Source of the DNA: Candidatus Poribacteria bacterium
GTDB taxonomy: Bacteria; Poribacteria; WGA-4E; PCPOR2b
DNA: 64,000 nt
Direction: 5' to 3'
Assembly: GCA_965207095.1 (NCBI GenBank)
Contig: CBDBMC010000001.1
Coordinates: 4,625,575 to 4,689,574 of the forward strand
Made by a program: the position numbers and the translations under genes. How positions within the stretch are numbered: the first letter of the stretch is position 1; every line of letters begins with the position of its first letter. This document shows positions 8,587 through 57,610 of this stretch, in pieces. The notes beneath the pieces were generated by a model. The model made no database searches and was not told the DNA's origin. It saw only the letters and a list, made by a program, of their open reading frames with translations.

Positions 8587-8630
8587 TAGATACTCCTTTC
8601 GTTTTCCTCCGATGCTACGAAGTCATTATA

Positions 8631-8775
8631 GTAGATCTCAGAATTAATGAAACACTCCAAATTGGTAGGCGCTGTTTCCAACTGCGCCGTTTCAACTCAA
8701 CCAACGGTGTGTATGCGGTGCGGTTAGAAACCGCACCTACCGGGGAGCGAAAGTGTCTCTTTATTTTTAGAATTC
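8631..8775 (+). mobile_element. MITE-like element, family 1, copy A
   Basis: About 145 bp. Imperfect terminal inverted repeats TAGAATTAATGAAACAC ... GTGTCTCTTTATTTTTAGAATTC. Flanked by the direct repeat CATTATA (8624-8630 and 8776-8782). Contains two inverted copies of the 25-nt module GYGCRGTTGGAAACMGCRCCTACC. Near-identical copies at 11392-11511 (inverted) and 19991-20084. Confidence 0.7.
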
Positions 8776-8830
8776 ATTATAAACTGGATTGTTTACGCTC
8801 CACCAAGACTTGATGCTATTGATGTCCATG

Positions 8831-11391: not shown

Positions 11392-11511
11392 GGATTCTAA
11401 AAATAAATGAACACTTTTGCCCCCGGTAGGTGCCGTGGTAGGTTGAAACGGCGCAGTTGGAAACAGCGCCTACCAATTTGGAGTGTCTCATTAATTCTAA
11501 AATTTACTATA
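11392..11511 (-). mobile_element. MITE-like element, family 1, copy B (inverted relative to copy A)
   Basis: Reverse complement aligns with copy A end to end, with an internal deletion of about 30 bp. Together with copy A it brackets the two membrane-protein genes. Confidence 0.7.
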
Positions 11512-11631
11512 AATTCTATTGCGGGGCAAGATGCCCTGCCTACAGGACAGCGTCTGCAACGGCTGACAGATAGGACAATGACAGTCGGAAGTGCGTAAGT
11601 CCTATTCTGGCTAGGATTCACAAGGGTCTCT

Positions 11632-19856: not shown

Positions 19857-19990
19857 GAAGTGTCCTCCTGTATAACTTCGATATTTCAATTGACTCAATT
19901 TATCCATCGTGGTATATTTTTTATTGTACCCAGTTTCGGTGATTTGCTCAACACAATTAATCATTCGGTGCTAACCTACCACAATATTAT

Positions 19991-20084
19991 AGTAGATCTT
20001 AGAATTAATGAGACATGCCAAATCGGTACGGTTAGAAACGGCACCTACCGGACGACGAAAGTGTCTATTTATTCTTAGAATTCA
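19991..20084 (+). mobile_element. MITE-like element, family 1, copy C (shortened)
   Basis: Keeps both termini (TAGAATTAATGAGACA ... GTGTCTATTTATTCTTAGAATTCA) and one GGTACGGTTAGAAACGGCACCTACCGG module. Lies in the divergent promoter region between the racemase-family gene and the Sel1 gene. Confidence 0.65.
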
Positions 20085-20193
20085 CCATAAATAAAACGAA
20101 GGCGACCCACAATGACCGAACATGTGTGGAGGATTGAGGCCGCGAAACAGGGCGTACAAAATATCGAATCCTATAGATACTGGGGGGCAAATT

Positions 20194-21678
20194 ATGTGCC
20201 ATCCAGCTCAGCGAGTTATTCTCTCGGTTTTGATGATGTGCCTACTCACCACTGCATCCGTGTGGGCGGATTATCAGGCGGGTATGGATGCTTATGAACA
20301 AGGGGATTACGAAACTGCATTACAAGAATTTGAACCACTCGCCGAGAGCGGGAACACGAAGGCTCAGTTTTATCTTGGGCGGATGTATGCAAGGGGCAAT
20401 GGCGTCCCTAAAGACGACGCGAAGGCGGCAAAACTATACAAGGAAGCCGCTGAGGGCGGTGATACTATAGCCCAATTTGTTCTTGGGATCTGGTATGAAG
20501 ATGGTAGAGGGCTGCCTAAGGATAAGGGAGAGGCAGTCAAGTGGTACTATAAAGCCGCTCAACAAGGTTCTGATCTGGCGCGGTATAAATTGAGCCGGAT
20601 GTTTGCCAGTAGCGCGAACATCCTTCAGAACGACGATGAGAAGACCAATCTATACAGAGTAGCCGCCGAACAGGGCTACGCCAAGGCACAGTTCCCTCTT
20701 GGCATGATGTATCAATACGGTTGGGGCATTCCGCAGGACGGCGGGGAAGCGATCAGATGGTTTCAAAGGGCCGCCGAACACAACAACCCTTTTGCCCAGT
20801 TTGAACTTAGCCTGAGATACAAATACGGTTGGAATGTCCCTCAAGATGATGAGGAGCAAAACAGATGGCACAGCGAAGCCTTGTCTCAATTCCATGTCCT
20901 GGCTTGGAATAAACAATTTGACCGGATGCTCCGCAATTACGAGGAAACCGCTCAAGAGATTGAAGAAACACTCGAATGGTATCGAACAGCCGCCGAACAC
21001 GGTTACGCCAAAGCACAGTTCCGCCTTGCCAAGCTGTATGAATACGGCTGGGGTGTTCCCCAAGATGACGAAAAGGCAGCTAGGTGGTATCGCGCAGCAG
21101 CAAAACAGGGTGATGTATATGCCCAGTTTGAACTCGGCGTGAGATATGAATATGGCTGGGGGGTTTCGACGAACAACGAGGAGGCAGCTAAATTCTACCG
21201 CAAAGCTGCCCAACAAGGCTACCCCCAAGCCCAGTACAGACTTGGCATGAAGTATAAATTCGGTAGAGGCGTTACAGCGAGCAATATTGAGGCAGTCAAA
21301 TGGCTTCTCAAGGCTGCTGAACAGGGCTATGCCGATGCCCAATATGCGCTTGCTCGGATGTATTACAGGGGTGAGGGTGTCCCTCAAAACTATAGCGAAG
21401 CAGTTAAATGGTTGCACCATGTCGTTCCACAATGCCATGCTCCCGCACAACTTTACCTTGGCTGGCTGTATGAAAATGGTCAGGGTGTCCCTCAAGACTA
21501 CGTAACCGCCCACATGTGGTACAATCTCGCTGGGGCACACGGTTACGAGAAAGCCCGCGAATACCGGGATCGAATTGCGGAGAAGATGACTCCCGCCCAA
21601 ATTGCTGAAGCCCAGCGTCGGGCGCGTGAATGGAAACCAGAGAAGACTGACTCACAGACAAACGCCAACGAGAAGTAG
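20194..21678 (+). CDS. Sel1-repeat (TPR-like) protein with signal peptide
   Basis: Signal peptide MCHPAQRVILSVLMMCLLTTASVWA followed by at least 10 Sel1 units (AQFxLGxMYxxGxGVPQDxxEAxKWYRKAAEQG). The overlapping minus-strand ORF 20650-21600 is a mirror artefact. Confidence 0.85.
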   Translation: MCHPAQRVILSVLMMCLLTTASVWADYQAGMDAYEQGDYETALQEFEPLAESGNTKAQFYLGRMYARGNGVPKDDAKAAKLYKEAAEGGDTIAQFVLGIWYEDGRGLPKDKGEAVKWYYKAAQQGSDLARYKLSRMFASSANILQNDDEKTNLYRVAAEQGYAKAQFPLGMMYQYGWGIPQDGGEAIRWFQRAAEHNNPFAQFELSLRYKYGWNVPQDDEEQNRWHSEALSQFHVLAWNKQFDRMLRNYEETAQEIEETLEWYRTAAEHGYAKAQFRLAKLYEYGWGVPQDDEKAARWYRAAAKQGDVYAQFELGVRYEYGWGVSTNNEEAAKFYRKAAQQGYPQAQYRLGMKYKFGRGVTASNIEAVKWLLKAAEQGYADAQYALARMYYRGEGVPQNYSEAVKWLHHVVPQCHAPAQLYLGWLYENGQGVPQDYVTAHMWYNLAGAHGYEKAREYRDRIAEKMTPAQIAEAQRRAREWKPEKTDSQTNANEK

Positions 21679-27039: not shown

Positions 27040-27436
27040 GCTTATCATCGCTTCATGTCATACAAATATACTAACTTAGGTTGTTAGAGAATATCGAGGT
27101 CGAGCTGCTATACGCGACGCCCACTAAAAACAGCCAATAAACTGAGCGCCAAACTGTAGGGATCGGGTGCACTTAATCCGATGGGCGAGGGAACCTCGCT
27201 CCTACGATTGGGTATGTGTTTGTGCATTACCGACACATGTCGCCCCGCTGGGGCTTTTGTTACTAGGGGAGTCGCCCGTCTATAAACATGCCGCCCCTCT
27301 GGGGCTATGATGGCGCATGATAAATTGAAGTGTTAAGTTTCACAGTTCTCGTTCAACCCAACCTACGGGCTGTCAAATGTCAACACGCCGTAGCAGCTTA
27401 GGTTATACTAACAATCACAGGAGGTAAACCGACAAG

Positions 27437-29020: not shown

Positions 29021-29301
29021 CGAAGGTATACCGACGTTTCTAGAGCGTTTTGACATTAATGTGGGGTGTGGTCGCAATTCGCCGATAAAATTCTAATCAT
29101 AGCACCAACCTCAACTTACTCAACAGGTTGGGAGACCCAACCCCTACGAATTCAACTCTGTGTTTCTAGGATGTCTGTTGTGCGCTGCCGGTTGTGAAAT
29201 ATGAAACGACCTAACAGAATCTAACACTTTTTCAAGAATCAAGGCGTCTAGTCGTTTTTTACGTGTCGCACCTCTGGGACTTTGGTGGTACATTTATCCC
29301 C

Positions 29302-30381: not shown

Positions 30382-30483
30382 GGGCCGTAATCCTTAACAT
30401 TCATGTAAAGAAATCGTGCCGCAGAAACCGAGTTTTTTCTTAATAACCCGGTTTCTCTTTGTGCTTTGCGCTTTCTTTTGTAA

Positions 30484-30952
30484 CCTAAGTTGCTAGTTAG
30501 CCTGTATGCCGTCTTTCCACATTCGCCAACGATACACATGTCGAAAATACCCGGAGTGTTGCATAAGGTGCTAGGCTCAATGAGCCAAGAATTGACGGAT
30601 AACCCACTGGGTATTTGGGACTTGGGTGTATGGGTGATATCCACATTCTATAAACATGTCGCCCCGCTGGGGCTAAAAAACGGGGAAAGTCCTCAAACTA
30701 AAGACATTGCGCTCCGCATGAAGATTAATTTATTAATTGGGTAATTTCCGAGCGATGTCCGGTGCGGTTGGAAACCGCACCTACCGGGTCTGGGGGAAAT
30801 ATAGAATTACCCGTTTAATTTCTTAAAACCCATCTGGAGCGCAGGCATTGACCGCATCGCCGTTCTATAGACATATCGCTCCTCCGGAGCGAAAGATAGA
30901 ATCCCTCAATCTTAACGACAAACCGATGGATGCTCAACACTAGCAACTTGCG
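30484..30952 (+). mobile_element. MITE-like element, family 2, copy a (composite, 469 bp) inserted between modB and modC
   Basis: Terminal inverted repeats CCTAAGTTGCTAG ... CTAGCAACTTGCG. Internal modules include the ACATGTCGCCCCGCTGGGGCT hairpin, the GGTGCGGTTGGAAACCGCACCTACCGG hairpin, and a roughly 175-bp block (30706-30880) nearly identical to 57209-57385. Confidence 0.75.
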
Positions 30953-31003
30953 TTTTGATATGAGCGGGCCCTAAAATGCAACAGCGGATTGGGTGGAGCT
31001 ACT

Positions 31004-32445: not shown

Positions 32446-32746
32446 AATTTACGAAGATTAAGTTTGCTAAACGACGACAGGAATTTTCTCGATTTGTTGT
32501 GTATTAATCTAACACAAGTTGCTAGGGCGTGTTGACATTTGTAAAGCTATTTGCAATCGTAGGGACGAGGTTACCTCGCCCATTGAACAATACAGGTGAG
32601 CCATCCCAAACCGTACAGGTTGAATTGGTTGTAGATTGTCCGGATTCATCGGGATGCTCCCCGATAGATCGGGACAGGCGGAACGGCATAGGTCGAGATT
32701 CACATCTCGACGCTGAAACGTCGATTTTGGAAAATCGACCTACAGC

Positions 32747-32872
32747 AAGCCCGAAATCGGCTCTGACGTGTGAACAAAGGGTTGGGAGACCCAACCCCTA
32801 CGGAGAATCATGCGTCTGCACACCCTCTTGATTGTCTGGTTACAATGAGATGTCAACAGAGCCTAGTTAGCC
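32747..32872 (+). repeat. Conserved roughly 125-bp intergenic block, paralogous to 42555-42680
   Basis: AAGCCCGAAATCGGCTCTGACGTGTGAACAAAGGGTTGGGAGACCCAACCCCTACGG ... CCTAGTTAG, containing the hairpin GGTTGGGAGACCCAACC. The same hairpin also occurs at 29126-29148. Confidence 0.65.
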
Positions 32873-33250
32873 CGTAGGTCGCCTTTCCTCATTCGCCACT
32901 AATTAGACTAACTAAAGTAACGATACACATGTCGAAAATACCCGGAATGTTGCATAAGGTGCTAGGCTCAATGAGCCAAGAATTGACGGATAACCCACTG
33001 GGTATTTGGGGCTTGGGTGTATGGGTGCTAGCCACATTCTATAAACGTGTCGCCCCGTTGGGGCTAAAAAATGTGAACAAGTTCTCAAGCTATACACGTA
33101 GCACTCCTCTGGAGCGCAGGGATTGACCTCATCGCCGTTCTATAGACATATCGCTCCGCCCCGATGAATCGGGATTCAAAACTGGAGCGAAAGGGAGATT
33201 CCTCAATCTTAACGAAAGACCGATGAATTTTCAACACTAGCAGCTTACGC
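32862..33250 (+). mobile_element. MITE-like element, family 2, copy b (389 bp)
   Basis: Termini CCTAGTTAGCC ... CACTAGCAGCTTACGC. Its internal content parallels copy a, including the small spurious ORF 32929-33126. Confidence 0.7.
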
Positions 33251-33650
33251 TAATCTAGTGAATATCGTTGGGTTTCACTGTATCTGTCTATCCGTACACG
33301 TTGAAAAAAGTCATAATGTATTTATGTGAGAAATATAGATCCGCCTTCAACCGTTTAACCCAACGTACGTGTTATACATGTTGCTCCTCATGAACATTAA
33401 AAAAACAGTTCGGCAATTTGCTATTGGCACCAGCGCGGTTGGAAACCGCGCCTACCGTGTGTTTCAAGGAAAATCGAGATTGCCGATTTAAATACTTAAA
33501 CTTCATCTGGAGCGAAAAGTTCTCGGACCACATATTGAAGTAGGACGACAGGCTTTATACAACTTCGCTTTTTGTATTGCTTAACTTGCAATATTATGCT
33601 ATCTTGCTTGAAATGACCGCCATAACTGAAAGCTCTACGGAGGACTTGAC

Positions 33651-35673: not shown

Positions 35674-36047
35674 TCAGTGCTCCTTTTATAGGCAATAGAA
35701 TGTTTCAGTTGTTATTTTATTTACTTCAAGAGATTTTAGGGGTACTCTCTTGATAATAATAATAGCGAATTTATGCTGTATTGTCAATCGGTTTCTGGAC
35801 TTCATTTGGTCTAACGCGCTATGAGTTAATGTTTGACCGTTCCTCAACTCAATTGTCATGCTCCATCTCCGTTGCCTTTCTTGAACAAAGATCTCAAATA
35901 TTGACCAGTAAAGCCACATCAAGCTAAACGTATGAAAAAAGAAAACAGGTATTTTTTTTCTACACTTTGCCCTTGATACTTAACACCTGTTATGGTAAAA
36001 TAAAATTTGTTACTTCATTATTGAGGGCGCTGTGATCTATAGTAATC

Positions 36048-36324
36048 CAAGTTGCTAGTTAGTCTATAGTCCGAGTTTCCATACTCGACACTCAGTTAGA
36101 AATAACCAGAGTGATACACATGTCGCCCCGCTGGGGCTTGGAGTTGTAGGAATGTGCTTTTCTATATACATGTCGCCCCGCTGGGGCTAAAAAACGGGGC
36201 AAGTTCTGGAGCTATACACATAACACTCCTCCCCGATAAGAGCGGGATTCAAAACTGGAGCGACAGGTTGGACAAATCAACTATAACAACCAACCAATAG
36301 ATTTTCAACGACTAGCAACTTACG
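36048..36324 (+). mobile_element. MITE-like element, family 2, copy c (277 bp) with 10-bp target-site duplication
   Basis: Termini CAAGTTGCTAGTT ... ACTAGCAACTTACG, flanked by the direct repeats TATAGTAATC (36038-36047) and TATAGTAATC (36326-36335). Contains two ACATGTCGCCCCGCTGGGGCT hairpins. Confidence 0.75.
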
Positions 36325-36390
36325 TTATAGTAATCTAAGCGATTGAATTATAGTCATGAAACAGTATATCACCAGAAAAGGAAATAACGC

Positions 36391-42251: not shown

Positions 42252-42554
42252 CGTGTCCTCCTGAGTCGATTCCACTTCACCTAAGTTGATAGATAACTTT
42301 TAAGGCGTGTTAGGCCAGGTCTCCCCGCTGCGGTTATTCTGGTTCATTAGTTCATCTGTTTATTGGTTCAGTAACCTGATGAATCACACACATACCGCTC
42401 CGCAGGTTAGGAAACCTATGCTACGTTGACTAAGGCGTGTTGACATTTTGCTATTGCTGATTCAGCAAATGCTGGAATCATCAGGCAATCTGCCATAAGT
42501 AGCGCAAACTGTTAGTTGGCAGGCTGGGATCACAATCTAACAGATCGTGGTACA

Positions 42555-42680
42555 AAAGCCCGAAATGGTCTCTGACGTGCGAACAAAGGGTTGGGAAACC
42601 CAACCCCTACGAAGGATTATGCGTTTGTGCTCCCTCTTGATGGTCTGGTTGCGATGAAAGATCAACAGAACCTAGTTAGT
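42555..42680 (+). repeat. Conserved roughly 125-bp intergenic block, paralogous to 32747-32872
   Basis: Same block including the hairpin GGTTGGGAAACCCAACC and the terminal CCTAGTTAG. Sits in the divergent region between the ADH and the lactonase-like gene. Confidence 0.65.
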
Positions 42681-42977
42681 GTCGGGCAAATCCGATCCCG
42701 TTTCGAGGACTCCCCCTATTTCATCAAGAAGCCTTGGCTTCGCCGGGACGAGGAATCGGAGGAAGGTCCGCCCGTTGCCCCCAAATCCCCGGTACATCGG
42801 GACAGGCGAGACCAGACGCAACCGGGGATGCCCGATCTACGGCTGCGGCGCGTAGAAGTCCATCTAAAAACCCTTGACAGGTCACCGAGGATTGAGTAAA
42901 ATCCCACCAATCTCTTTCTGGATTATCACCATATCAACTTGCCAAGATGGCACACGTCTGGACTAACGAGGAACAGA

Positions 42978-53455: not shown

Positions 53456-54470
53456 GCCAGATGATGAGAAATCATCAGCACATCAACGGCTTGAAGCCGA
53501 GGGACAAACACCGGAAACAGAGACATTAGGGCAACTGCGACAACTCGCCGAGGGCGGTGATCCAAGATAACCTTACTGGATGTATCAAAATGGCATCCCT
53601 CATAATGATGCAGAAGTACATTCAAGATGTTGAGAGCACCATTAATTTAGAAGGTCACAGAAACCTAACATGGGTCCCGAAGATATAGTGGTAGAGAAAG
53701 TTGTTGCATTACTTTCGAAAAGCAGTTATCTGCTCAGAATGACCTCGGCTGGCTGCACCAAAATGGTCGAGGAGTCCCCCAAGACGATGTGAAGGCAGTC
53801 GAATGGTATAGAAGAGCTGCTGAAGGTGATTATGCCATAGCCCAAGATAACTTAGGTTGGATGTATCAACATGGCAGAGGCGTCCCTCAAGATGATGTGG
53901 AGGCAGTCAAATGGTATCGAAAAGCTGCCGAAGGTGGCTCTCTTGCAAAAGCCCAAGACAACTTAGGCTGGATGTATCAGCACGGCAGAGGTGTTCCGCA
54001 AAGTGATGTGGAAGCAATTAAGTGGTATTGTAAAGCCGCTGAAGGTGGCTATTCCGCAGCCCAAGATAATCTTGATTGGATATATCAAAATGGTAGGGGC
54101 GTTGAGTAGATCAAGTGTAATTTACGCTGGCCTACTCCCACTTCCGAATATCGACAAAATGCCCGGCGATCGCAGCGCCTGCAGCCATCTGTGGACTGAC
54201 GAGATGCGTACGTCCTCCCTTGCAATGAAAAGGTTGAAAGCGCCCAACAGAAAATTGATGGACTATCAAGACAACAACAGGAAATTCAAATAAAAAGGCA
54301 AAAACTCCAATTGAGGTTCAAATTGCTGTCTTAAAAGCTGAATGGAAAACTTACAAGACGAGATTAGCCAACTCAATGAGAAAGTTAAGAACTCAACGGG
54401 AGATAGGCCAAAGCCAAGAAAAAATTGAGGATTTGTCAGCGCGACGGTAATAAAATGGAATCGCAGGTCA
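53456..54470 (+). pseudogene. Decayed gene remnants: Sel1-repeat gene fragments and a coiled-coil fragment
   Basis: Sel1 units (NLGWMYQHGRGVPQDDVEAVKWYRKAAEGG) are spread over three frames with no intact start. The frame carrying 53789-54109 is open back to the stop at 53666, with no ATG. A separate short heptad-like fragment follows. Confidence 0.45.
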
Positions 54471-54573
54471 ACAATTCTTGAATGGATGGTGAAGTTTGTT
54501 GCTCATAGTGCAGATGGAACAACTGACGTATCCGCTCAAATCAACAGAATTAGACAAGTTGCATACGAGACGC

Positions 54574-55890
54574 TCAACCCTGTCTGCCCTCGAAATTTCG
54601 GTTCGACGTGCTGGCACAGCGTTCACCCGGCATTAGGATATCGGGATTCATGCCGAGGCACATGCTACAGCCGGACTCACGCCATTCAAAGCCCGCCTGA
54701 CGGAAAACTTCGTCCAAACCTTCCGCTTCCGCCTGTCGCTTGATCGCCTGTGACCCCGGTACGACGAGCGCATTCACCGCCGGAGCAACCTTGCGTCCCT
54801 TGGCAACTTCAGCAGCAACGCGGAGGTCATCGATTCGAGAATTGGTACAACTCCCGATGAACACCTTATCGATCTGAATCTCCTCAATCGGCGTCAGGGG
54901 CTTTAAGTCCATATATGTCAGTGCATGCTCCGCTGCCTGTTTCTCATCCTGCGTCGGCATTTTATCTGGATCCGGCACATGTCCCGTTACCTCAGTCACC
55001 ATCCCCGGATTCGTTCCCCACGTCACCTGAGGTGCCAGCGTTGCAGCATCAATGGCGATTGACTTGTCGTAGACCGCCCCCTCATCTGTCGGCAACTGTT
55101 TCCACTGCTCGACTGCTTGGTCAAACGCCTCACCCTGCGGGCAGAACTCCCGCCCTGCGAGATATTCATAGGTCTTATCATCAGGCGCAATCATACCAGC
55201 GCGGGCACCCGCTTCAATCGACATATTGCAAACCGTCATCCGCTCCTCAACGCTCAACGCCCGGATGGCAGAGCCAGTGTATTCAATGACACAGCCGGTG
55301 CCGCCAGCGGTTCCGATTCTGCCGATAATCCCCAGAATGATATCCTTTGCAGTAACGCCACGTCCTAGTTGCCCATCAATCTCGATTTTGAAAGTTTGGG
55401 GACGTTGCTGCAAGAGGCACTGGGTCGCCAAGACATGCTCTACCTCACTGGTCCCGATGCCGATGGCGAGTGCCCCGAGCGCTCCATGGGTAGAGGTGTG
55501 ACTGTCGCCGCAAACGATCGTCTTCCCCGGTTGGGAGATACCGAGTTCAGGACCAATTACATGTACGATCCCTTGATTGGGGCTATGCAGGTCATATAGG
55601 GTGATGCCAGTTTCGGCGCAATTCTGAGCCAATACCTCCATCTGTTTGGCAGCAATCTCATCTTGGATTGGGAGCAATCGATCGGTGGTCGGCACATTGT
55701 GGTCCATAGTGGCAAAGGTCAGATCCGGCCGGCGCACCTTTCGTCCCGCGAGCCGGAGTCCCTCAAATGCCTGTGCAGATGTAATTTCGTGAACAAGGTG
55801 TGTATCAATATAAAGGATTGTCGTTTCGCCCGGTATTTCGTGGACGATGTGCGCGTCCCAAATTTTTTCAAACATCGTTTTCGGTGTCAT
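54574..55890 (-). CDS. leuC: 3-isopropylmalate dehydratase large subunit (aconitase family), apparently 3'-truncated
   Basis: 438 aa. Aconitase-family Fe-S ligand cysteines ([14 protein letters not shown]). The ORF stops directly after ...NRNFEGRQG, without the roughly 28 C-terminal residues normally present. No leuD is adjacent. Confidence 0.75.
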
Positions 55891-56177: not shown

Positions 56178-56936
56178 ATGAAAATAACCTTTGATTCAAA
56201 CGTCTGGGAAAGGGTGATTAACGAAGAAGAGCATCACCTTGTAAAAATCAACAACAAGATCCGCGAAGGCAAAATTCAGGCATATATCTGTGAAATAGCT
56301 TTAGATTTAGAAGCGGTTCAGAAGGCAAAGAGGGCTGAGCTCTTTGGAAACTATGAGCCCTGTATAACAGTGGAACACTTGCCGCCTAAAAATGGAACGT
56401 TCTTTATGCAAGTACGTGTGAAGCCAAATACAGAACAGCACCCCGGCATCCCTCCCCAGCTGTGGGACAAACTTTTGAAAGCTCACGATCTCGGATTCAA
56501 GGTACTCGGAATGACAGATGGTCAGAGAACAGTCCGCACCGAAGAAATCTCTGATGATATGTATGAACGACAGGACGATATTGAGGAATTCTGGACGTAT
56601 GCTGAATTGCTTGACAATTGCAGTAATTTTATAACGGGACTGGGTTGCGGACAAGCAGCGTACAATCAATTTGAAGAACAATTTAATCTGGTTGGTTCAG
56701 GTGGTCCGAACATGCCCAGTGAACAGGAACAGAAATTCTCTAAAGCGATTGCCGAGTGGGTCGACGGTAATTCACTTTCGGCACACTACGCAGCGGGTAA
56801 TGACTTCTTTTGTACAGACGACAGGGCTGGAAATTCGGGAACTAGATCCATATTTCATGTGGAAAATAGGGCGCAACTGGAAAAAGCGTTTGGTATCAAA
56901 ATCATTTCCAGTTGTGAGGCTGCTCAACTCTGTTAA
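56178..56936 (+). CDS. Hypothetical cytoplasmic protein, no recognisable family
   Basis: 252 aa. No signal peptide and no motif recognisable by eye. Its stop abuts the family-2 MITE copy d. Confidence 0.5.
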   Translation: MKITFDSNVWERVINEEEHHLVKINNKIREGKIQAYICEIALDLEAVQKAKRAELFGNYEPCITVEHLPPKNGTFFMQVRVKPNTEQHPGIPPQLWDKLLKAHDLGFKVLGMTDGQRTVRTEEISDDMYERQDDIEEFWTYAELLDNCSNFITGLGCGQAAYNQFEEQFNLVGSGGPNMPSEQEQKFSKAIAEWVDGNSLSAHYAAGNDFFCTDDRAGNSGTRSIFHVENRAQLEKAFGIKIISSCEAAQLC

Positions 56937-56941
56937 TCTAA

Positions 56942-57556
56942 CCTAAGTTGCTAATTAGCCTGTAGGTCGCGTTTCCGCAGTCGCCACGAATTAGACTCAC
57001 TGAAGTAAGGATACACATGTCGCCCCGCTGGGGCTTGGGTGTATGGGTGCTATCCACATTCTATAAACATGTCGCCCCGCTGGGGCTATAAGTCGGGCAA
57101 GATGCCCGACCTACAGGTATTGGGGTTTGACTTTTACTGCGTCGCACATAATTGGGGGGTGTGCATGTGTAGCAGTCTTAGTAGATTAACCGTATTGCTT
57201 GCATACACATTGCGCTCCGCATGAAGATTAATTTATTAATTGGGTAATTTCCGAGCGATGTCCGGTGCGGTTGGAAACCGCACCTACCGGGTCTGGGGGA
57301 AATATAGAATTACCCGTTTTATTTCTTAAAACTCATCTGGAGCGCAGGCATTGACCTTATCGCCGTTCTATAGACATATCGCTCCGCTGGAGCGCAGGTC
57401 TCTGTCGGATCATCAGGACTTTCGCGTGTTCGGCTTGCTGAAAGAACGTGAATCTAGTAGCAGTTTTGTTCGCTTATCGATATTTCCTGCGTAATCAGCT
57501 GCCTCCGCGATTCAAACAATAATGATGCACACCCCTCACATAATTAGCAACTTGCG
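56942..57556 (+). mobile_element. MITE-like element, family 2, copy d (615 bp composite)
   Basis: Termini CCTAAGTTGCTAATTAGCC ... TAATTAGCAACTTGCG, a roughly 17-bp inverted match. Contains two ACATGTCGCCCCGCTGGGGCT hairpins and the 175-bp block 57209-57385 shared with copy a. Confidence 0.75.
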
Positions 57557-57610
57557 TTATTACACGATAATCCAGAACCCGTACGAGTACCCAACAAAAC
57601 GAGGAAATTC

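Follow-up and report, generated by a model that had tools for sequence, protein, structure and literature searches.

What are the four repeated elements, here designated copies a, b, c and d of family-2, that lie within this 64,000-nucleotide stretch of DNA from Candidatus Poribacteria (the whole of which is referred to as the window), and what makes copies with shared ends differ so much in length? [quoted passage not shown] The evidence set out below makes it probable that family-2 consists of MITEs derived from insertion sequences (ISs) of the IS982 family in a poribacterial chromosome, and that their lengths differ through nested inserts, loss of a hairpin and sequence exchange. As for the host, the window has a GC content of ~50%, shares at least five of its repeat families with three complete genomes labelled Candidatus Poribacteria, and encodes a ModB protein whose closest named homologs likewise come from Candidatus Poribacteria. 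On these grounds a Nostoc-like cyanobacterium is rejected as the source. Of five window proteins looked up by exact sequence, four had no counterpart.

Ends and anatomy of the family-2 copies

Sequence reading and alignment place all four copies at the sites given in the earlier note, and all of them are intergenic. Their limits nevertheless had to be redrawn, because the true ends reach four bases further on each side (ACSY-AAGTTGCTAG...CTAGCAACTT-RSGT) and because copy b had been delimited wrongly: what stands at 32862 is just CTAGTTAGCC, whereas the real left end, ACACAAGTTGCTAG, lies at 32512, with a nested 339-bp element between the two. The corrected copies are as follows.

30483 to 30953, + strand: family-2 copy a, a probable IS982-type MITE of 471 bp between modB and modC
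32512 to 33250, + strand: family-2 copy b in its full extent, 739 bp
36045 to 36325, + strand: family-2 copy c, 281 bp, with one REP-A' unit, not two
56941 to 57557, + strand: family-2 copy d, 617 bp, made up of a host MITE of ~234 bp and the nested element Z

The copies share one layout, in which a left arm is followed by four hairpin units resembling repetitive extragenic palindromes (REPs), arranged as two direct pairs (REP-A and REP-A'), and then by a right arm. Their terminal inverted repeats (TIRs) are imperfect, 14-16 bp long and read ACSYAAGTTGCTAG(TT), with the core terminus ACNNAAGTTGCTAG; copy d has the variant CTAATTA at both ends. At no more than one mismatch, the core terminus occurs nine times in the window against 0.11 expected, a number reached in none of 100 shuffled sequences (an enrichment over shuffles of ~80-fold). 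Perfect 7-bp duplications flank copy b (TAATCTA at 32505-32511 and 33251-33257) and copy c (TATAGTA at 36038-36044 and 36326-36332), whereas the 7-mers around copy a (TTTTGTA / TTTGATA, 5/7) and copy d (TAATCTA / TATTACA, 4/7) are degenerate. The only open reading frames (ORFs) within the elements are short, overlapping and no longer than 100 aa. With inverted repeats, target duplications and no gene of their own, the copies fit the description of MITE-like, non-coding elements under which they had first been noticed. The genes on either side of copy a, modB and modC, belong to a molybdate transporter operon. The single hairpin unit of copy c matches unit 3 on its 5' side and unit 4 on its 3' side, which indicates that it probably arose by a deletion between repeated stems.

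Probable origin from IS982-family insertion sequences

Which transposase would recognize such ends? Genome contigs were scanned with the 16-mer AAGTTGCTARTTAGYC, an unspecific probe that gives many chance matches and from which both an IS of Snowella and a set of poribacterial MITEs were obtained. Comparison of loci sharing this 16-mer extended the conserved end to (T)AAC-SY-AAGTTGCTAGTT, and among the matches listed this end recurs in Poribacteria, in many cyanobacteria and in some Bacteroidota. The Snowella contig (L046) holds a 1018-bp element with ends of the family-2 type (ACCCAAGTTGCTAGTTAG / ACCCAAGTTGCGGGTAAT) and one ORF, whose 275-aa product scores 168.7 bits against the NCBIfam model for IS982 family transposases (NF033520, cut-off 130). 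Fragments of IS982 genes adjoin the same end in three further contigs (L084, L028 and L120, the last with the N-terminus of an IS982 protein). Since the same ends thus accompany an IS982 transposase in Snowella and IS982 fragments elsewhere, family-2 is best regarded as a MITE of the IS982 type, and the trans-acting transposase that the earlier note had postulated, a sound expectation in itself, can be assigned to a family. We take the IS982 family, as described in ISfinder, to have ends beginning with AC and target duplications of 3-9 bp, with which the AC ends and the duplications of ~7 bp seen here agree.

The same ends are found in miniature form in the poribacterial sequence OZ241983.1, where at least seven short MITEs of 133-136 bp are each enclosed by a perfect AT-rich duplication of 7 bp (for example TATAGTA, TATACTA and TATTATA). 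In this sequence (L104, 1080-2300), short MITEs of the IS982 type also stand in tandem, alternating with fragments of the Y type (see below) and with GTAG-tagged REPs, in arrays that repeat the same units of 150-300 bp at least four times.

Filled and empty sites in relatives

Syntenic loci of relatives, obtained via homologs of ModB, are ~81-83% identical to the window at the DNA level. In these relatives the modB-modC spacer measures 46-142 bp, compared with 623 bp in the window, where it holds copy a, and the PhyH-modA spacer measures 105-386 bp, compared with 1206 bp in the window, where it holds copy b. Both copies are absent from the syntenic spacers; clean empty sites for a and b were not obtained from relatives that are 81-83% identical, their spacers being remodelled.

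Copy c offers a sharper picture, and the search for empty sites in relatives that had been suggested for such elements succeeded here. Two relatives (L112 and L113) have a clean orthologous empty site, ...GCTTAGAT-TACTATA-GATTACGG..., where the window, read in the same orientation, has ...GCTTAGAT-TACTATA-[c]-TACTATA-GATCAC.... Because the empty site contains a single TACTATA, the target duplication must be 7 bp. The 10-bp repeat TATAGTAATC previously noticed on both sides of copy c is literally present, but its three additional bases are fortuitous, since the target was already flanked by GAT (GAT-TACTATA-GAT) and the element itself ends in GGAT. The reverse situation is found for a fifth element, e, in L110 (283 bp), which has the perfect duplication TATTATT and carries the insert ModI described below; the same spacer in the window is without e. 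Orthologous sites are therefore polymorphic in both directions, with c filled in the window only (versus L112/L113) and e filled in L110 only (versus the window).

Copy d is shared with two close relatives, L109 (99.3-99.35% identical) and L130. Given that the metagenome-assembly contig L109 holds the whole of the element, an assembly artefact is excluded. Upstream of d lies a gene of 252 aa whose stop codon TAA falls within the 7-bp target of d (56934-56940); it has no match in Pfam, is kept only in the closest relatives L109 and L130, and is replaced by an ORF of 68-84 aa in L131 and L132.

Elements nested within copies b and d

Why, then, is copy b the longest? Its left inverted repeat is interrupted at a CTAG by an element, Y, that is flanked by a TA (CTAG) duplication and followed by the rest of the left arm. 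Copy d is in turn interrupted by a different element, Z.

32525 to 32863, no strand assigned: Y, a 339-bp IS5-type MITE with inverted repeat GGGCGTGTTGACAT / ATGTCAACAGAGCC
57154 to 57536, no strand assigned: Z, 383 bp, with inverted repeat GGGGGGTGTGCAT / ATGCACACCCCT (12/13)

A metagenome scan for the junction of Y and b led to contig L120, in which the corresponding CTAG of an IS982 left end is occupied by an IS5-family element of 800 bp, with the transposase gene of the IS982 host next to it. This element has two ORFs (117.4 and 115 bits against NF033580, cut-off 110) and the ends GGTTCTGTTGACAT / ATGTCAACAGAACC, which match those of Y, with CTAG on the flanks, its left-end match being the search pattern itself. 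The alternative that copy b is a fusion of two adjacent elements at CTAG is rejected in view of L120, in which an IS5-type insertion occurs there together with a duplication. Contig L129 provides a second case of an autonomous IS5-family relative at the CTAG of an IS982-type end, and ends of the Y type also adjoin IS982-type ends at 27390 and ~42424-42680 of the window, in L077 and in L104. Two of these junctions belong to fragmentary or decayed elements.

27228 to 27403, + strand: fragment of another probable IS982-type element, with a REP-A hairpin pair at 27228-27308 and a right end GTAGCAGCTTAGGT (27390-27403) that is adjoined by a Y-type end
42279 to 42941, + strand: decayed ends of probable IS982 type, ACCTAAGTTGATAG at 42279; another left end, also decayed, is interrupted by a Y-type element (~42424-42675), after which CTAGTTAG appears again

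In full, the sites at which the CTAG is occupied are these.

L120, 1-1289
L129, 1098-1925
Window, 32522-32866, 27376-27403 and 42424-42680
L077, 4430-4830
L104, 1180-2000

The occupants of the CTAG within the IS982-type repeat (AAGTTG-CTAG) have ends GGnnnTGTTGACAT and are either IS5-family elements or MITEs of these, and occupancy is seen both in Poribacteria and in unrelated metagenome contigs. The repeated junctions between Y-type and IS982-type sequence imply that CTAG is a recurrent target of this group of IS5 elements; it looks like a target hotspot, whose occupancy would disable the end of the host element.

Element Z is enclosed by a 9-bp direct repeat CACATAATT (57145-57153 and 57537-57545), and elements with Z-type ends occur in L097 with an 8-bp duplication, AAGTAATT.

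The block shared by copies a and d

The observation that had originally drawn attention to these elements is a block shared by a and d, and its near-identity stands: 30706-30880 and 57209-57383 are 97.7% identical in a gap-free alignment, and identity is still 97% over a longer match of 188 nt (30704-30891 versus 57207-57394). What does not stand is the idea that the block is a single inserted module. The block lies within Z in copy d and directly in the family-2 backbone in copy a, and its parts are as follows.

30704 to 30891, + strand: REP-A' direct hairpin pair with insert M117 in copy a, 97% identical to 57207-57394
57207 to 57394, + strand: REP-A' hairpin pair with M117 in copy d, inside Z, the counterpart of 30704-30891
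30718 to 30834, + strand: M117 in copy a, a 117-nt palindrome at the apex of the GCGCTCC/GGAGCGC loop
57221 to 57337, + strand: M117 in copy d, exactly the 117 bp that are absent from the ortholog in L130 (placement ambiguous by 1 nt, C)
33390 to 33507, + strand: solo M117-type copy, ~70% identical to the copies in a and d, outside any family-2 element

The REP-A' pair reads ACAT-TGCGCTCC-loop-GGAGCGC, a spacer, and ACATATCGCTCC-loop-GGAGCG, with M117 in the first loop. Compared across copies and strains, the block is a composite of this resident second hairpin pair and an insert of 117 bp, not one module. Copy b has the same pair without M117. L130, whose sequence agrees with that of the window at 98% over 11 kb, has the ortholog of d complete with host, Z and hairpin pair but minus exactly 117 bp, reading GCGCTCC-GCT-GGAGCGC where the window has GCGCTCC-GC[ATGAAG...CTCATC]T-GGAGCGC. 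M117, which is 115/117 identical between a and d, has at its centre a GTAG-tagged REP, GGTGCGGTTGGAAACCGCACCTAC.

Why should a and d be so alike just here? Identity between them is strongly mosaic: 232/239 positions (97%) agree in the core hairpin modules, compared with 80/106 (75%) in the arms and spacer (Fisher p = 3e-9), and copies a and b show the same pattern (173/181 in the core versus 97/123 in the arms and spacer; Fisher p = 9e-6). Only 10 substitutions separate the window and L130 in d, and six of them fall within the 63 nt directly to the right of the M117 site; at half of those six positions the window copy agrees with a or b and not with its ortholog. Because the substitutions cluster in this way beside the M117 indel, a and d most likely owe their near-identity to recent gene conversion between paralogous hairpin pairs, in which M117 was copied along with adjoining pair sequence. 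The decayed target duplications taken together with the near-identical block imply old hosts and a young block.

Insertion into hairpin loops

Could conversion alone account for the distribution of M117? The solo M117-type copy lies within the loop of a REP-A' hairpin that stands alone (its stems are 33383-33387 and 33509-33514) and has a close relative in L088, which occupies the loop of a different hairpin, namely a GTAG-type REP of an IS630-like MITE. As M117 thus occurs in non-homologous hairpins, true transposition must take place as well. All four contexts have the insert at the C of an NCT loop of 3 nt, and no more than 1 nt is duplicated. The copy in L088 is itself broken by another IS630-like MITE at a TA, at a point where the window copy has unbroken sequence.

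Two further kinds of insert are found in the hairpins. ModI in copy a takes the place of the first REP-A hairpin's stem and loop and is 98.6% identical to ModI in copy b. ModIII (consensus CCCGAT-n-ATCGGG-ATTCAAArC) is a hairpin element of ~24 nt found in REP-A' loops of b and c.

30544 to 30616, + strand: palindromic ModI insert of copy a, 73 nt, AAAATACCCGG...CTGGGTATTT
32935 to 33007, + strand: ModI in copy b
33160 to 33182, + strand: ModIII of copy b, CCCGATGAATCGGGATTCAAAAC, a hairpin of 23 nt within the fourth REP-like hairpin's loop
36232 to 36255, + strand: copy c's ModIII-like insert, CCCGATAAGAGCGGGATTCAAAAC, within the CACTCC/GGAGCG loop

The modB-modC spacer of relatives contains two adjacent GTAG-type REPs in whose loops ModIII is reciprocally present or absent: L110 and L111 are filled in one loop and empty in the other, and L112 shows the reverse. 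Over 198 kb, 12 of 21 copies of ModIII are flanked by complementary stems of at least 5 bp, compared with 24% of random sites, and hairpins of three or more classes contain ModIII. Folded as single strands, M117, ModI and ModIII come to lie within outer stems, with z-scores of -3.8 for M117 in a, -3.7 for the solo M117-type copy, -2.5 for ModI in a and -2.2 for the remaining fold. The REP-A pair alone gives no significant fold (z = -0.8), and the empty hairpin of b folds weakly (z = -0.3).

The GTAG tag is found at the centre of M117 and on several other hairpins (ending ...CCTAC) and is missing from the REP-A and REP-A' units of the scaffold, whose pairs are direct repeats ~50 nt apart rather than the inverted pairs that define REP doublets forming hairpins (REPINs). 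Other families of hairpins ending in CCTAC, the complement of the GTAG tag, occur in the window at 29121-29150, 32775-32804, 42584-42613, 27170-27205 and 11520-11545 (examples are GGTTGGGAGACCCAACCCCTAC and GGGCAAGATGCCC..CCTAC), giving several classes of GTAG REPs in this genome. A second MITE family, with ends TATAGTAGATCTCAGAATTAATGAGACA and a putative IS630/Tc1-like origin, carries one or two GTAG-type REP hairpins at its centre (window 8625-8790, 19986-20095 and 11400-11520; L088 6494-6830); its copy in L088 is the one nested in M117, with a TA duplication, and the corresponding empty site, GATTTAAATACTT, lies at 33484-33496 of the window.

Do these inserts have an integration mechanism of their own? 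M117 lands at the central C of the 3-nt NCT loop, and ModIII lands in fixed orientation just after the 5' stem. It is possible, although we put this forward only tentatively, that M117 and ModIII (~24-31 nt) represent a tiny palindromic class that integrates specifically into REP-type loops, with no more than 1 nt duplicated, and then spreads by conversion. A best guess, of low confidence, at the responsible enzyme would be one of the IS200/IS605 type or one resembling REP-associated tyrosine transposases (RAYTs), both of which act on hairpins or single strands; among the 30 window ORFs scanned there was no match to Y1_Tnp, the RAYT domain. If real, this behaviour would amount to a structure-directed mechanism of integration, probably using single-stranded DNA, that is undescribed for bacterial MITEs.

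How the composites may have formed

The sequence of events that best accommodates these observations would begin with a DDE transposase of the IS982 type, encoded elsewhere, that moves the gene-less family-2 copies in trans, each insertion duplicating 7 bp of AT-rich target. Element Y, an IS5-type MITE, would then have landed at the CTAG in the left end of b, and Z, with its own inverted repeat and a duplication of 8-9 bp, in d. Palindromic mini-elements would have entered hairpin loops, namely M117 (copies a and d), ModI (a and b) and ModIII (b and c); one hairpin unit would have been lost from c, and sequence would have been exchanged between paralogous hairpin pairs. Nested insertion, which the earlier note had favoured as the simplest explanation, thereby keeps its place as a major cause of the differences in length, considering the three nested elements with repeats or duplications of their own and the empty sites for M117, for an insert of ~24 nt and for copy c; the variation of c, on the other hand, is partly due to loss of a hairpin unit.

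A number of points weigh against this account. An autonomous element with the same TIR, for which a search had been proposed, exists in Snowella, but tblastn revealed none in the window or in ~230 kb from related poribacterial loci, and among the best 120 homologs of the Snowella transposase all of the named ones are cyanobacterial. Within the window, neither Pfam (applied to 30 of 43 gene-sized ORFs) nor tblastn of the whole stretch revealed an IS982 or other transposase, nor did tblastn with IS982 and IS5 proteins give a match there; a metagenome scan with the left arm of family-2 had no match either. The number of family-2 copies given here is that of the 64-kb window, and we infer, rather than observe, present-day mobility of family-2 in the source genome. 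The decayed duplications mark copies a and d as old. M117 was either gained recently in the lineage of the window or lost recently in L130. Gene conversion is based on one cluster of six substitutions, and ModI is not a clean insertion, as 7-8 nt of the hairpin are replaced.

How do other explanations fare against the same body of evidence? It could be argued that the block of 175-188 bp is, after all, one mobile module that transposed independently into the older elements a and d: the limits of identity between a and d coincide exactly with those of the hairpin pair (ACAT...GGAGCG), the block sits in different backbones (Z in d versus family-2 in a), and it is much more alike between the two copies than their arms are. 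Such a unit would, however, be bounded by no inverted repeat or duplication, b has the hairpin pair in the corresponding backbone position but no 117-bp insert, the clustering of substitutions beside the indel speaks for exchange between homologous pairs, and the ortholog of d in L130, with the pair present and exactly 117 bp missing, largely refutes the proposal, which must be rated unlikely. The opposite extreme, in which there was no secondary transposition and the mosaics arose purely by recombination or conversion among MITE subfamilies sharing hairpin motifs, draws on the same substitution cluster, on the contrast between arms (75-85% identity) and hairpin modules (92-98%), and on the resemblance of c to a deletion between repeated stems. 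We consider it very unlikely, given that Y and Z have inverted repeats and target duplications of their own (Y also has autonomous IS5 relatives), that an M117-type copy occupies a non-homologous hairpin loop in L088, and that ModIII has entered hairpins of three or more classes, orthologous loops being empty.

Might the core be of use to the host? As copy a lies in the modB-modC spacer it would be co-transcribed, the core is better conserved than the arms, and strong folds are predicted, all of which would suit a cis-regulatory or structured RNA element under selection, for example in the modABC operon, rather than selfish DNA. Yet the elements are missing from the same spacers in relatives, copies occur in unrelated gene contexts, substitutions in the core of d accumulate at least as fast as in its flanks, and searches of Rfam returned no match at the gathering score or even at E = 1, so that selection of this kind appears extremely improbable.

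Other variable sequences in the window

The window varies from its relatives in other ways too. A stretch of ~354 bp (54224-54577) breaks the 3' end of an aconitase-family gene, leaving an ORF of 438 aa compared with 467 aa in relatives; it is absent from L109 (99.3% identical) and L130 (98%), bears neither an inverted repeat nor a duplication, and resembles a fragment coding for a coiled coil. Within the same gene, a segment of 115 bp (54718-54832) contains 16 of the 25 positions at which the window and L109 differ, which suggests a putative recombination tract between strains. Genes with a 108-bp periodicity, resembling Sel1 or tetratricopeptide (TPR) repeats, are found at 20500-21415 and 53742-54102 and also in L109 and L131. 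Between thiG and the aconitase gene, relatives have HNH and Sel1 genes (~3.4 kb extra in L109); the interval is a variable island for repeat proteins of eukaryotic type, such as sponge symbionts typically have.

Relation to known systems

MITEs derived from IS982 are known: MITECca01 and MITECca02 of Cardinium stem from ISCca4 (PMC9769881). Like these, family-2 is short and gene-less, has TIRs matching those of an IS982-family IS, and is abundant in a host-associated bacterium. The Cardinium elements differ in that family-2 belongs to Poribacteria, with no parental IS found in its genome, and has an interior made of arrayed REP-like hairpins, into which further elements have inserted, rather than the deletion remnant of an IS. 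The Nezha MITE of Nostocales and its partner ISNpu3 (Zhou et al. 2008, as summarised in PMC3184786) are described in that summary as sharing TIRs and direct repeats, the MITE being ~130-170 bp long and having AT-rich targets as well as empty and filled sites between relatives. IS-type TIRs, AT-rich targets and filled and empty sites are likewise features of family-2, a likeness by description, and relative to the Nezha of that summary family-2 has a greater length and a composite build. Loci of Stigonema, Iphinoe and Brasilonema contain elements of 111-136 bp whose end is ACGTAAGTTGCTAGTTAG.

The hairpins also recall the mosaics of REPs and bacterial interspersed mosaic elements (BIMEs), among which GTAG-tagged REPs are nested in longer palindromes and have simple or complex self-complementary loops (PMC3733652). 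Here, too, hairpins are tagged with GTAG/CTAC (as in the centre of M117), occur singly, paired or clustered, enclose one another with inner hairpins in outer loops, and lie at the centre of MITE-like palindromes, and ModIII resembles the complex loop variants of that study. Unlike GTAG REPs and REPINs, the REP-A and REP-A' units have no GTAG tag and form direct pairs, and no RAYT gene was seen in the window. Insertion into REP loops has precedents in IS1397 and ISKpn1, which enter the loop of palindromic units, and REPs themselves can be targets of ISs (Clement et al. 1999; Tobes and Pareja 2006; both listed in PMC3116915). M117 and ModIII are alike in that they, too, are directed into extragenic palindromes at the loop. 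IS1397 and ISKpn1 are autonomous elements of the IS3 family with duplications of 3-4 bp, in contrast to M117 and ModIII, which are non-coding palindromes of 24-117 nt with a duplication of no more than 1 nt.

A parallel to ModIII may be seen in SDR4-6 of Nostoc punctiforme, small dispersed repeats of 21-27 nt that Elhai and co-workers reportedly described in 2008 as behaving like mobile inserts within conserved sequences and within other repeats. ModIII, equally very small and inserted in other repeats, differs by its occurrence in Poribacteria and by a target that is clearly a hairpin loop, with orthologous empty loops. Layered composites in which MITEs are preferred targets of other MITEs are familiar from plants, in the self-insertions of Tourist and Stowaway; those are eukaryotic elements of different transposase superfamilies.

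Significance

Nested MITEs of the IS982 type are hence a known kind of element that is new to the phylum Poribacteria, and, to our knowledge, the mobile DNA of these uncultured sponge symbionts has remained essentially undescribed. Correct boundaries and a family assignment (IS982-type, with a 7-bp duplication) are now available for annotating this class of poribacterial repeats. For the genome itself, layered insertions enlarge spacers, which measure 46-147 bp in relatives, to 620-1200 bp here, one of them inside the modABC operon, and REP-like hairpin loops as well as the CTAG of the IS982-type end serve as landing pads for further mini-elements. The pairs of filled and empty orthologs (L130 for M117; L110 and L112 for ModIII) make the mechanism of loop-targeted insertion testable.

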